From the sequence record PZ379184.1: a stretch of DNA of 39,711 nucleotides; one strand, 5' to 3'. The notes below the pieces were generated by a model, which saw only the letters and a program-made list of their open reading frames with translations, did no database searches and had not been told where the DNA came from. Below, piece after piece: positions 1,092 to 17,622 of this stretch. This stretch comes from a phage. Position 1 is the stretch's first letter. Every line of letters starts with the position of its first letter. The position numbers were made by a program, and so were the translations under genes.

Positions 1092-1595
1092 ATGGAACGT
1101 AATGCTAACGCATACTATGAGCTGCTGGCTGCAACCGTTGAGGCATTTATCGAGCGTATTCAGTACGACCACCTGACTCAAGATGACGACTACAGCGCTG
1201 CGCTGCATGAGGTCGTAGACGGTCAGGTTCCACACTATTACCACGAGATTTTTACGGTGATGGCTGCTGATGGTATAGACAACGAGTTCGAAGACTCTGG
1301 GATGATACCTGAAACCAAGGACGTAACGCGTATCCTACAAGCTCGCATCTATGAGGCACTTTATAACGACGTGTCTAATAGCTTGGATGTAGTCTGGTTT
1401 GAGGATGAAGAGGCAGACGAAGAGGATGAATATTGGGTAGTTGACGCTAAAACAGGCGCAATAATTGTGCAAGCTGTAGCTCTTGAGGTCGCTACTGCAT
1501 GTGCCAAGGTCAACTATGTGATAGGTCGCCACCTTCAGGTGGAAGACATCAATGATAACGTAGTGTTTGACCCTGCTGCTGAGGACTGCGAGTGA
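1092..1595 (+). CDS. 0.3: Ocr-like DNA-mimic anti-restriction protein (T7 gp0.3 homolog) with a C-terminal extension of about 45 aa
   Basis: VPHYYHEIFTVMAADGIDNEFEDSGMIPETKDVTRILQARIYEAL aligns closely with recalled T7 Ocr; acidic tail; 167 aa versus 117 aa in T7. Confidence 0.85.
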   Translation: MERNANAYYELLAATVEAFIERIQYDHLTQDDDYSAALHEVVDGQVPHYYHEIFTVMAADGIDNEFEDSGMIPETKDVTRILQARIYEALYNDVSNSLDVVWFEDEEADEEDEYWVVDAKTGAIIVQAVALEVATACAKVNYVIGRHLQVEDINDNVVFDPAAEDCE

Positions 1596-13223: not shown

Positions 13224-13261
13224 GACTCAAGGTCATTCACATCGAGTGGCCTTTATGATTA
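13224..13261 (+). promoter_or_regulatory. RNase III processing site candidate (R4.7-like)
   Basis: AGACTCAAGGTCATTCACATCGAGTGGCCTTTATGATTA; copy of the element at 6125 and 36548. Confidence 0.65.
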
Positions 13262-13281
13262 GACTAAACGGAGGATTAACC

Positions 13282-15297
13282 ATGTTTGACCTTAAGAGTA
13301 TCTGGGGTTCTGACATAGAGACCAACGGTCTCCTTGATACAGTATCCCAGTTTCACTGTGGGGTCCTGATTAACGCCGAGTCGAATGAGACCCTTAAGTA
13401 TGGGGTAGCTCCGATGGTCGGTATCGTCGGTGGCTTCAAAGAGTATGTACAGAAGGTGGAAGAGATTGCCGCATCACCTGATGGTATGCTGGTATTCCAC
13501 AACGGTATCAACTATGACGTCCCGGCTATTGACAAGCTGAAGCGTCTGTACTTTGGGAAACGCTTTAACTTCCCGAAACACAAGATGATTGATACCTTGG
13601 TGCTGGGACGCTTGATGTATCCAAACATTAAGTTCTCAGACATGGGCGCAGTGAAAGCTGGTCGTCTGCCACCTAAGATGATGGGACGCCAGTCTCTTGA
13701 GGCTTGGGGCTATCGTCTCGGTGAGATGAAAGGTGAGTACAAACACGATTACGTTGCCAAGTGCAAGGCTGAAGGTATCGAATATAAGGCTGGGGACGAA
13801 TGGTTGTTCCCATCTCAGGAGATGCTAGACTATAACGTTCAAGACGTTGTGGTCACACTGGCGTTGTTCAAGAAGTTCCTGACTGACAAGTATTACTTCC
13901 AGTCTGAACAGTTCGCTTTCGACCAGATTTATGCGTTGCGTCTGGAACATGATGCTGCGTGGACCTGTGCGAAGATGGAACGTAACGGCTATCCGATGAA
14001 CACCGAGATGGTCGAAGGCTTATATCGTGAACTCACCGTCAAACGTGCAGAGTTGTTGGACAAGCTGCGTTCGACTTTCGGTAGCTGGTATGCACCAAAG
14101 GGAGGCAAGGAGTTCTTCAAGCACCCACAGACAGGCAAGGACCTTCCGAAGTATCCGCAAGTCGTGTATCCTAAGGTCGGGTCAGTATTCAAGAAGCCGA
14201 AGAACAAAGCTCAACGATTAGGTCTGGAGCCTTGCGAGTTCGACTCACGAGACACGATGGAAGGAGCACCGTTCACACCTATCACTTACGTTGAGTTTAA
14301 TCCGGGAAGCGGAGACCACTTAGCGAAAGTCCTGATGGAGCGTGGCTGGGAGCCTGTGGACTTCACTGACACCGGGAAACCTGTAGTCGATGACGAGACG
14401 TTAGAACACGTTAAGTTACCAGACGAAGAGGCTCAGGCTTGCGTAGAGCTGGTCCGTGAGTATCTGGTAGTCCAGAAGCGCATCGGTCAGGCTGCTGAAG
14501 GTAAGAACGCATGGTTGAAACTTGTAGGTCCAGACGGACGTATGCACGGTTCAATCAACCCATGCGGGGCAGTAACCGGACGTGCGACTCATAGTTCACC
14601 AAACATGGCTCAGGTCCCTGCTAACGGTGCTCCGTATGGTGAGATTTGCCGTGGTGCTTTCGGTGCAGCTTGGAACAAGACGGATGGTAAGCCAGACCCT
14701 TGGATTCAAGTGGGCGTGGATGCCTCAGGTCTTGAGCTTCGTTGTCTGGGGAACCGAGCGGCCCCGTTTGATGGTGGAGCCTATGCGAAGACTGTGGTAG
14801 AAGGGGACATCCACTGGGCCAACGCAGTAAACGCTGGGTTAGCACCTAACGTCCCACGCGATAAGTCGAACCACGACCATGAGGCTTTCCGTAACAACGC
14901 TAAGACGTTCATCTATGCGTTCCTGTATGGTGCAGGGGCCGCTAAGATTGGACTGATAGTAGGTGGCGGTAAGAAGGAAGGTTCAGCTCTCATGAAGAAA
15001 TTCATTGAGGGTACACCAGCTATCAAGGATCTGCGAGAGGCTGTGAGTAATACGTTAATCTCAGACTCTAAGTGGGTGGATGGAGAGAACATCGTCAAGT
15101 GGAAACGCCGTTGGTTGCGTGGACTTGATGGTCGCCGTATCCACATCCGGTCGCCACACTCAGCACTGAACGCCTTACTTCAAGGCGATGGTGCGGTAGT
15201 CTGTAAGCACTGGATTGTCGAGACTGAACGTATGCTCGAAGAGGCAGGGTATGTTCACGGCTGGGAAGGTGACTTTGCGTACATGGCATGGGTGCAT
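13282..15297 (+). CDS. 5: DNA polymerase (T7 gp5 homolog), exon 1 (672 codons)
   Basis: Starts MFDLKSIWGSDIETNGLLD (T7 MIVSDIEANALLE) after SD GGAGGA; collinear with recalled T7 gp5 through FAYMAWVH, then an in-frame TAA at 15298. Confidence 0.9.
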
Positions 15298-15895
15298 TAA
15301 CATCATGGTGCACATTAAATCTGGTGAACTCGGTGAACTCCTAATGGGACAATACCGAGCCAAGCCATAGGGAGGATGTATGAGAGGCAAGAAGTTAATT
15401 CTTGAGGCCACTGAGACTGGCTGCATAATCCCTACGTCACATAAATTGAATCAGGATGGATACTTCCGAAAGAGGACTAACGGTGTCCTTGAGATGTATC
15501 ATAGAACTGTATGGATTAAAGCTAATGGTCCAATACCTGACGGTTTCGAAGTAGACCACAAGTGTCGTAATAGAGCTTGTTGCAACGTCGAACATCTACA
15601 AGTATTAGACCGGGACTCACACTTAGTCAAGACCAACAAAGAGCGATACGCTGCTAGGAAGCTAGAAGCACGAGACTACTGGGTAGAGACTGGGTGTACT
15701 GGAACGAAGTTAGCCGAAATATTCAATGTGTCGTTCTCAGCCGCCTGTGGGTGGATTAGAGAGTGGAAGGCGTAGAGACTATCCGAAAGGAGTAGGGCCG
15801 TGGGTGAGATTCCCACGTAACCCGAAGCGCCAGACAGTCACCTCAAAGACTGATGATATAGTCCGACACTTCCAGTAATGGGAGAATACAGAAAG
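15298..15895 (+). mobile_element. Group I self-splicing intron (598 bp) in the DNA polymerase gene, carrying an HNH homing endonuclease ORF
   Basis: Exon ends in T; intron ends in G; intron 5' GTGCA can pair with exon TGCAT (P1 with U-G wobble); R-like AGAGACTA (15775-15790) and S-like GATATAGTCC (15855-15864) elements; downstream exon restores the conserved DNAP C-terminus. Confidence 0.8.
15380..15775 (+). CDS. HNH homing endonuclease (131 aa), intron-encoded
   Basis: HNH motif HRTVWIKANGPIPDGFEVDHKCRNRACCNVEHL; SD GGGAGG before ATG; lies wholly inside the intron. Confidence 0.85.
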   Translation: MRGKKLILEATETGCIIPTSHKLNQDGYFRKRTNGVLEMYHRTVWIKANGPIPDGFEVDHKCRNRACCNVEHLQVLDRDSHLVKTNKERYAARKLEARDYWVETGCTGTKLAEIFNVSFSAACGWIREWKA

Positions 15896-16051
15896 GATGA
15901 GTTACAGATTGCTTGTCGTACTCAAGAAATAGCAGAACGTACAGTAGAAATTGCTCAACTTGCTATGCGTAAGGTGGGTGAGTTTTATAACTTTAAATGT
16001 GTCCTTGATACCGAAGGTAAGATTGGACCAACGTGGAAGGAGTGTCACTAA
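15896..16051 (+). CDS. 5: DNA polymerase (T7 gp5 homolog), exon 2 (51 codons)
   Basis: Encodes DELQIACRTQEIAERTVEIAQLAMRKVGEFYNFKCVLDTEGKIGPTWKECH, matching the recalled T7 gp5 C-terminus. Confidence 0.85.
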   Translation, partial: DELQIACRTQEIAERTVEIAQLAMRKVGEFYNFKCVLDTEGKIGPTWKECH

Positions 16052-16335: not shown

Positions 16336-16541
16336 GTGAATACTTACGGGTCCTAGCGGCCCTTAAGTCCTGCCCGAAGACCTTCCAGTCCAACTATGTG
16401 CGCAACAACGCTGCACTTGTGGCTGAGGCTGCGAGTCGTGGACATCTAAGCTGCCTGTCTATGGATGGGCGTAACAACGGTGCGTGGGAGATTACCGCTG
16501 AAGGCACCAAGTTCCTAAATCAACACGGAGGCTGTCTATGA
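16332..16541 (+). CDS. 5.7: gp5.7 homolog (69 aa)
   Basis: LKSCPKTFQSNYVRNNAALVAEAASRGHLSCL...GAWEITAEGTKFL closely matches recalled T7 gp5.7. Confidence 0.85.
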   Translation: MSEYLRVLAALKSCPKTFQSNYVRNNAALVAEAASRGHLSCLSMDGRNNGAWEITAEGTKFLNQHGGCL

Positions 16542-16756
16542 ATCAAGACGTATCAGGACGAGAACTTAAGGTAGGACAGAAGGTTGCTTTCTGTCTGGCT
16601 GGAAAGTCATACGCAATGTGTATAGGCGAAGTAGTCCGGGTAATGCCTAAGACTGTAGCCATCAAGCACAAGACATTTATTCGCTGGAATGGAATGACCG
16701 AGGAGGTCGAAACGGTACGTGCCTTCTCTTCAGTTTGCATCGCTGAGGAGGCATAA
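16538..16756 (+). CDS. Hypothetical protein (72 aa) at the T7 gp5.9 position, not similar to gp5.9
   Basis: SD GGAGG before ATG; coupled to flanking genes. Confidence 0.6.
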   Translation: MNQDVSGRELKVGQKVAFCLAGKSYAMCIGEVVRVMPKTVAIKHKTFIRWNGMTEEVETVRAFSSVCIAEEA

Positions 16757-17622
16757 TGTCAGAGAAGAAAATAGCTCTGGTTCTGGATGGTGACTATCTG
16801 GTCTTCTCTTCTATGGCTGCTGCCGAGGACGAGACAGACTGGGGTGATGACATCTGGACCCTTATCTGCGACCACGCCAAGGCTCGACGTATCCTTGAGA
16901 ACACCATCGCTGAAATCGTTAAGAAGCGCAAGGCGTGGAAAGACGCTAAGATTGTGATGTGCTTCACCGACGATTACAACTGGCGTAAGGACGTTCTGCC
17001 AACCTATAAGGCCAACCGTAAAGGTTCCCGCAAGCCTGTAGGTTACAAGAAGTTCGTAGCCGAAGTGATGGCTGACCCACGGTTCAACAGCTTCCTGCGT
17101 CCTACGCTTGAAGGTGATGACTGTATGGGTATCATCGGGACCCGACCTCAGATTGTTGGCTGTGATCATGCGGTTCTGGTGTCCTGTGACAAGGACTTCA
17201 AGACCATCCCGAACTGTGAGTTCTTCTGGTTAACCACTGGTGAAATCCTGAGTCATACGACTGCCGAGGCAGACTACTGGCACATGGAGCAAACCATCAA
17301 GGGTGACACTACAGATGGCTACGGCGGTATTCCGGGGATGGGTGGGGACACCACTCGTGCGTTCCTTGACGAGCCGTACTACTTCGTGCAGGAGAGCCGT
17401 GAGCTTAAGACTGGTAAGAACAAAGGCCAGATTAAGACTGAGTGGAAGAAGTATCCAAAGCGTGAAGACATGACGCTGTGGGACTGCATGGTTACACTGG
17501 CTGCTAAGGCTGGTATGACCGAGGAGGAACTTCTGGTCCAAGCTCAGGTCGCTCGTATTTGTCGAGCCTCCGACTATGACCCTAAGTCCAAGGAGGTCAT
17601 CCTGTGGACACCATCCATGTAA
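16756..17622 (+). CDS. 6: 5'-3' exonuclease (T7 gp6 homolog)
   Basis: CDHAKARRILE, YKANRK, KPVGY, SCDKDFKTIPNC, TIKGDTTDGY and WDCM...AKAGMTEEEL match recalled T7 gp6. Confidence 0.92.
   Translation: MSEKKIALVLDGDYLVFSSMAAAEDETDWGDDIWTLICDHAKARRILENTIAEIVKKRKAWKDAKIVMCFTDDYNWRKDVLPTYKANRKGSRKPVGYKKFVAEVMADPRFNSFLRPTLEGDDCMGIIGTRPQIVGCDHAVLVSCDKDFKTIPNCEFFWLTTGEILSHTTAEADYWHMEQTIKGDTTDGYGGIPGMGGDTTRAFLDEPYYFVQESRELKTGKNKGQIKTEWKKYPKREDMTLWDCMVTLAAKAGMTEEELLVQAQVARICRASDYDPKSKEVILWTPSM

Follow-up and report, generated by a model that had tools for sequence, protein, structure and literature searches.

A predicted SH3-like barrel protein at the gene 5.9 position of a K1F-like phage, and its pairing with gp5.9 in other phages

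Phages of the T7 family are used heavily in phage therapy and in research on defence and counter-defence. In T7 the products of genes 5.5, 5.7 and 5.9 each disable a specific host system, with gp5.5 targeting H-NS and gp5.7 targeting sigma-S RNA polymerase. Gene 5.9 lies between genes 5.7 and 6, a point on which the T7 annotation agrees with an earlier note on the DNA studied here. The gp5.9 protein is an acidic parallel coiled-coil dimer that blocks RecBCD as a DNA mimic (PMC9836394), and it also blocks MukBEF (PMC7617805).

Here we describe the equivalent interval in a phage sequence of 39,711 nucleotides (record PZ379184.1; the window, meaning the whole stretch of DNA that was analysed), in which the slot between genes 5.7 and 6 holds an open reading frame (ORF) for a 72-aa protein. 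The gene has been in GenBank since phage EcoDS1, which carries the same gene annotated as 'unknown product', and its family is already catalogued as phrog_2251 and as DUF7205. In the literature library searched, no paper names PF23835, DUF7205 or phrog_2251; an accessory-gene screen preprint (10.1101/2023.04.06.535777) mentions neither gp5.9 nor T7-like phages nor K1F, and in the SH4/SH5 genome paper the only remark on the slot gene is its similarity to a K11 ORF. What is new here is the fold assignment, the finding that several T7-family genera regularly have a member of this family in the 5.9 slot, a catalogue of what the slot contains, and a conserved fusion between the barrel and gp5.9.

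A single-gene cassette between genes 5.7 and 6

Over the 8 kb around the ORF, identity to K1F-like phages (Kayfunavirus, Studiervirinae, T7 family) is 93-98%, and the order of the locus is DNA polymerase, gp5.5, gp5.7, the 72-aa ORF and the gene 6 exonuclease. With a phrog_1334 protein encoded upstream and a phrog_107 protein downstream (Table 1), the 72-aa protein does sit at the gp5.9 position, as had been claimed for it. The ORF is translationally coupled to both of its neighbours, and it is a middle (class II) gene of this K1F-like phage.

Table 1. Coordinates, in the window, of the features discussed in the text
Feature	Position	Strand	Details
72-aa ORF, stand-alone predicted SH3-like beta-barrel, phrog_2251 / DUF7205	16538..16756 (stop included)	+	ATG start; TAA stop at 16754-16756
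Gene 5.7 homologue, 69 aa	16332..16541	+	phrog_1334, E 1e-38; TGA stop overlaps ORF start (ATGA)
Gene 6 5'-3' exonuclease, 288 aa	16756..17622	+	phrog_107, E 3e-78; directly downstream of the ORF; ATG (16756-16758) overlaps the TAA stop of the ORF (TAATG)
Shine-Dalgarno GGAGG	16527..16531	+	6 nt 5' of the ORF ATG
GAGGAGG, gene 6 ribosome-binding site (RBS)	16745..16751	+	within the final ORF codons (..AEEA*)
167-aa ORF, ocr DNA-mimic family	1092..1595	+	
DNA polymerase gene 5, split	13246..16051		exon 1 ends ..FAYMAWVH (15300)
Gene 5 C-terminal exon, 57 aa	15878..16051		
HNH endonuclease ORF	15380..15775		Pfam HNH_3; between the gene 5 exons
Rfam Intron_gpI match	15288..15885		whole model, E 2e-7, 35.8 bits, under the gathering score of 50

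ORFs of about 72 aa are also present by chance in other frames of the region, so a length of 72 aa proves nothing by itself, and this much speaks for regarding the ORF as a chance reading frame or a decaying remnant without function. Comparison of five Kayfunavirus copies gave dN/dS values of 0.09-0.14 for the diverged pairs, and a ratio of about 0.1 indicates a protein-coding gene under purifying selection. Because this ratio is joined by a match to phrog_2251, by homologues in 154 phage records and by a confident predicted fold, we conclude that the 72-aa ORF is a genuine gene. Conservation across distant phage groups and coupling signals that are intact at both ends weigh on the same side, and we regard the probability of a chance or decaying ORF as negligible.

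In K1F, gene 5.7 abuts gene 6 and the slot is empty. Alignment of the junctions with K1F revealed an exact insertion of one gene, in which the ORF takes over the RBS and ATG of K1F gene 6. A 769-bp query running from gene 5.7 through the ORF into the first part of gene 6 had matches in 226 records, only 28 of which contain the 72-aa ORF; slot contents were then counted in 60 evenly spaced records, 11 of these rows being partial matches (Table 2). At least eight alternative slot contents occur in Kayfunavirus, and the 5.7-6 slot of Przondovirus is equally variable. The gene is dispensable, as many siblings with flanking genes of about 95% identity are without it. Together, these comparisons show that the 5.7-6 interval is a recombination hot spot. 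The 72-aa gene is one of several cassettes, each a single gene, that are exchanged there, and the proteins swapped in this way are gp5.9, the DUF7205 barrel, barrel-gp5.9 fusions and other small proteins.

Table 2. Contents of the 5.7-6 slot in 60 evenly spaced records (11 rows are partial matches)
Slot content	Records	Phages
Empty slot	17	K1F, PE3-1
Window-type barrel, 72 aa	8	ECG4, EcoDS1
Acidic protein, about 150 aa	8	pO2, phiYIO1-1
Acidic protein, about 110 aa	7	ST37, vB_EclP_26
Divergent barrel, about 92 aa	4	Vec13, SH5, IMM-002
Unannotated CxxC...CxxC ORF, 41 aa	2	216Ecol046PP, TM1
IMEP24 type, 103 aa	1	IMEP24
CLB_P1 type, 78 aa	1	CLB_P1
GW1 type, 66 aa	1	GW1

Several of the other slot proteins can be placed in families of their own. 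Two unrelated acidic proteins alternate in the slot: that of pO2 (locus L006) and phiYIO1-1 (L010) belongs to phrog_4382, and that of ST37 (L007) and vB_EclP_26 (L014) to phrog_18166. The 41-aa ORF is zinc-ribbon-like (216Ecol046PP, L011:207-332, with the same slot length in TM1), and a similar Cys pattern is found C-terminal to the barrel in the 136-aa protein P0020. Otherwise unrelated slot proteins have the tails ..A(T/K)GGLDDGC and ..VPAMSKAKAVS(N/D)E in common, just 5' of gene 6, and these shared tails probably mark the recombination junction carrying the gene 6 RBS.

Sequence family and predicted fold of the 72-aa protein

The 72-aa protein matches phrog_2251 with E 1.4e-20 and 74.4 bits, residues 2-71 aligning with profile positions 2-71 of 74; the annotation of this profile is 'unknown function'. 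The same profile also fits proteins of Vec13, IMEP24 (N-terminal part), KA1-1, Kp168, PPWS4 and KKE5P, as well as PAK_P1 gp165c (E 6e-12 to 2e-25). A precomputed PF23835.2 tag is borne by all homologues that we found in a collection of 5.8 billion proteins, including those 96% identical to the 72-aa protein and all 57 full-length clusters, and PF23835 is named DUF7205 in the Pfam copy used. The PF23835.1 model (128 positions) gave no match to the 72-aa protein at E <= 10 and reached only E 0.01 with the IMEP24 protein, so the Pfam assignment of the 72-aa protein depends on the precomputed tag. The two versions are evidently different in reach, with PF23835.2 tagging every full-length family member.

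This family is confined to phages. A profile search of 1.84 billion representative proteins returned only 90 clusters at E <= 1e-3, most of them stand-alone proteins of 60-90 aa. By tblastn, homologues were found in a total of 154 phage records: 28 of Kayfunavirus type, at 80-96% identity, and 126, at about 40-49% identity, from Pseudomonas myoviruses, those that were checked being Pakpunavirus. Further locus searches with closer queries recovered only known Kayfunavirus, Pakpunavirus and Przondovirus genomes. In an alignment of 34 diverse members including the 72-aa protein, residues D4, G13, K38 and R61 are invariant.

Within phrog_2251/DUF7205, the 72-aa protein belongs to the subtype of the window and EcoDS1, which at 40-49% identity is nearer to the Pakpunavirus proteins than to the Przondovirus/Vec13 subtype, only 21-33% identical to it in the family alignment. 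It is without a C-terminal extension, whereas other members add a gp5.9 domain, a zinc knuckle or ribbon, or a ..GGLDDGC tail. Members of the family use the same slot 5' of gene 6 in several Studiervirinae genera.

The nearest relatives outside Kayfunavirus are encoded by Pseudomonas aeruginosa myoviruses of about 93 kb, for example PAK_P1 gp165c (L004:3998-4210) and phage EM gp042 (L005:2998-3216). Their presence implies horizontal transfer between unrelated virulent phage lineages with different hosts. In Pakpunavirus the gene is one of a series of small anonymous genes that precede dCMP deaminase and DNA ligase; no gp5.9 was found nearby, and for the neighbours Pfam gave no informative domain.

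The protein had been described as basic and Cys-containing rather than acidic. It does contain 3 Cys and is not acidic, but with a net charge of +2 and a pI of 8.55 it is basic only mildly, compared with a net charge of -8 and a pI of 4.1 for T7 gp5.9. The median pI of the phrog_2251 family is 8.8. A protein of this mildly basic composition is not a DNA mimic, and since gp5.9 works as an acidic DNA mimic, the 72-aa barrel cannot act in that way. Cys19 and Cys67 are conserved in close homologues only, with Gly, Tyr or Val elsewhere in the family, and a zinc or disulphide site formed by Cys was rejected because these two residues are not family-wide.

AlphaFold2 predicted a model with five strands for the 72-aa protein (pLDDT 87.8, pTM 0.74), and on the basis of this model the fold is a five-stranded SH3-like barrel of the Tudor/KOW type. 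Foldseek comparison with the PDB gave no match at E <= 1e-3, and the best matches, all weaker than this threshold, were ribosomal SH3 barrels of the eL21 type. In a viral structure library (BFVD), all matches at E <= 0.001 were uncharacterised phage proteins, several from T7-like phages, and the top ones were family members of other phages. A sequence-profile search of solved structures yielded none below E 0.2, and NCBIfam and PADLOC gave no matches for the 72-aa protein. Known Tudor/KOW/PWWP barrels (Spt5 KOW, the NusG C-terminal domain, SMN Tudor and eL21) are 6-21% identical to it, and there is no Pfam Tudor match.

Although the model has the five-stranded SH3-like barrel of a KOW domain, membership of that family fails at the sequence level: Pfam KOW gave no match at E <= 10, and hhalign probabilities were 0.5% for the E. 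coli NusG C-terminal domain and 0.4% for E. coli L24. As Tudor and PWWP domains score as well as KOW, the fold match is generic, and the fold as modelled points to no specific target. Two other candidates were set aside. The sole local Pfam match, to the CusF_Ec copper-binding domain (E 0.0036, 17.5 bits against a cut-off of 27), spans 29 residues of a generic barrel and was therefore rejected as a weak fold-level echo. Sub-threshold matches to Phage_ProQ_C_like in a few homologues fit a Tudor-like barrel and not membership of that family.

Barrel and gp5.9 as neighbouring and fused modules

T7 gp5.9 resembles the 72-aa protein in its position between genes 5.7 and 6, its small size and its accessory status, and it is physically linked to the barrel family in being found adjacent and fused to it. 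The two differ in isoelectric point and in architecture, a coiled-coil dimer in gp5.9 (PMC9836394) versus a predicted beta-barrel here. They also share no sequence similarity, which bears out the earlier statement that the slot protein is unrelated to gp5.9: BLASTP of the 72-aa protein against T7 gp5.9 produced no alignment at E <= 100, and PF25708 (Phage_T7_Gp5_9), which does detect the GW1, CLB_P1, IMEP24 and T7 proteins, gave no match to it at E <= 10.

We found no gp5.9 domain elsewhere in the window when a custom gp5.9 HMM was run on all six frames, and a Pfam scan of 56 small ORFs on the plus strand of the first 19 kb gave no gp5.9 either, while it did recover ocr, the gp2 RNA polymerase inhibitor and gp1.2. 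The ocr match has E 5e-28 for an early ORF, and phmmer with a T7 Ocr sequence gave a match at 1080-1592 (E 6e-26). With an ocr match and no gp5.9, this phage retains one DNA mimic, for anti-restriction, while being without the other.

Among other phages, we observed barrel and gp5.9 as independent modules in every combination. The barrel alone is present in this window, EcoDS1, Kp168, K2044-HW and PPWS4, and gp5.9 alone in T7, GW1 and CLB_P1; the K1F slot has neither. As separate genes, gp5.9 comes first in JSS2 (Berlinvirus) and KA1-1, and the barrel comes first in an IL33-like Przondovirus. Fusions with the barrel at the N-terminus form six 90%-identity clusters of 103-104 aa that bear both Pfam tags and comprise 26 member sequences; the clusters are 56-94% identical to each other and lie on contigs of up to about 40 kb. 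The 103-aa IMEP24 protein, for example, matches phrog_2251 in its N-terminal part (E 6e-12), PF25708 at residues 64-97 (E 1.5e-13) and phrog_6234, 'host RecBCD nuclease inhibitor' (E 1e-11). An AlphaFold2 model of a barrel-gp5.9 fusion was poor (pLDDT 59), lending weak support to a beta-then-helix order. At most of the barrel-bearing loci examined, gp5.9 was absent within the stretch fetched around the barrel.

The fusions (IMEP24, L009:207-515; proteins P0111, P0113, P0115, P0117, P0120 and P0133) are annotated only as 'hypothetical protein', as is CLB_P1 gp5.8 (L012:207-443; PF25708 E 1e-10), and the GW1 slot protein (L016:207-407; PF25708 E 4e-15) is annotated as 'putative tail spike protein'. 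The gp5.9 proteins of GW1 and CLB_P1 share an ..AGGVDNWxGY.. motif, which JSS2 gp5.9 ties to a T7-type N-terminus.

Possible roles of the barrel

The adjacency and fusion of the barrel with gp5.9 indicate that the two are not alternatives, and argue against simple redundancy. The earlier note had proposed that the 72-aa protein may be a functional replacement of gp5.9, acting on RecBCD or another nuclease-based defence, and as a like-for-like replacement this proposal is not supported by the comparison: the barrel adjoins or is fused to gp5.9 in other phages, the slot is empty in close relatives such as K1F, a mildly basic beta-barrel stands in place of an acidic coiled-coil DNA mimic, and Pseudomonas myoviruses have homologues in settings remote from gp5.9 or gene 6. 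The same observations make it unlikely that the barrel is a RecBCD inhibitor that replaces gp5.9 by a non-mimic mechanism, for instance by binding a subunit as P22 Abc2 binds RecC, since co-occurrence and fusion speak against redundancy, K1F-type relatives cope with an empty slot, the protein is not acidic and the Pseudomonas homologues stand in an unrelated context. Such an inhibitor would nevertheless suit a barrel that occupies the gp5.9 position in a genome without a gp5.9 domain, as well as the fact that barrel-only and gp5.9-only slots are both common. Linear T7-type genomes are moreover expected to require protection from RecBCD, and Abc2 offers a precedent, though only as an analogy of mechanism, for a small phage protein acting on RecBCD without DNA mimicry (PMC9836394).

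Somewhat less doubtful, and still improbable in our estimate, is that the barrel is a nucleic-acid-binding helper of phage DNA metabolism with no anti-host action, which might serve the gene 6 exonuclease as cofactor or regulator, or bind RNA or single-stranded DNA. SH3-like, KOW and Sm-type barrels frequently bind nucleic acid, ribosomal proteins are the best Foldseek matches, and the mildly basic charge of the family would suit a nucleic-acid binder too. In Kayfunavirus, Przondovirus, Pektosvirus and Berlinvirus the gene also lies directly 5' of the exonuclease gene, to which it is coupled, and the Pakpunavirus copies lie just 5' of dCMP deaminase and DNA ligase. Set against this, the gene is missing from many siblings, a net charge of just +2 is weak for a nucleic-acid binder, and its small neighbours 5.5, 5.7 and 5.9 are all host-directed in T7. 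We give a still lower chance to a KOW/Tudor-like decoy against host transcription or translation, for example a competitor of the NusG C-terminal domain for Rho or S10 or a binder of RNA polymerase, which would extend the host shut-off by gp5.5 and gp5.7. The position of the gene beside these two, both of which act on host transcription, is in keeping with a decoy, but the generic fold match and the lack of a sequence relation to KOW (Pfam at E <= 10; hhalign below 1%) are not, and a decoy would leave the association with gp5.9 unexplained.

The reading that we tentatively prefer, while putting it at clearly less than an even chance, is that the 72-aa barrel is a small binding module that acts alongside gp5.9 and not in its place. 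The fusion has persisted in sequences that have diverged, and adjacency is seen in both orders; these are the sole positive hint of function, and they point to the DNA-end arena of gp5.9. We infer that the barrel would engage a host component in this arena, which may be DNA-end processing, RecBCD or RecBCD-dependent defences, and that its action would add to that of gp5.9 rather than substitute for it. Like Tudor and KOW domains, the barrel would bind through its loop end, using the beta1-beta2 loop and the loop of Trp50, a residue that is near-invariant among close homologues only. Position, adjacency and the conserved fusion suggest, but no more than suggest, a functional tie to RecBCD or DNA-end defence. 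Both the fusion and the adjacency could have arisen by chance where small, coupled genes are densely packed in a recombination hot spot shared with unrelated genes. The absence of gp5.9 around most of the barrel genes examined also counts against the preferred reading, and the Pakpunavirus context lends no support to a RecBCD link.

In its broadest form, which we consider doubtful, the proposal is that phrog_2251/DUF7205 barrels may be a widespread, unrecognised class of counter-defence proteins directed at RecBCD, another DNA-end nuclease or a RecBCD-guarding system, which would bind proteins without mimicry and serve as modular partners of gp5.9, here acting alone. If a RecBCD-linked counter-defence role is true, it would account for how phages without gp5.9 cope with RecBCD and would provide a function for a DUF that is encoded by well over 100 sequenced genomes of enterobacterial phages and by 126 records of Pseudomonas phages; natural near-isogenic phages with and without the cassette would then allow direct tests. 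If it is not true, the barrel gene is an ordinary accessory gene.

Upstream of this interval, the DNA polymerase gene 5 of the window is split (Table 1). The insert resembles the group I intron already known from polymerase genes of T7-like phages, and K1F gp5 is annotated as a two-piece join with the same layout.
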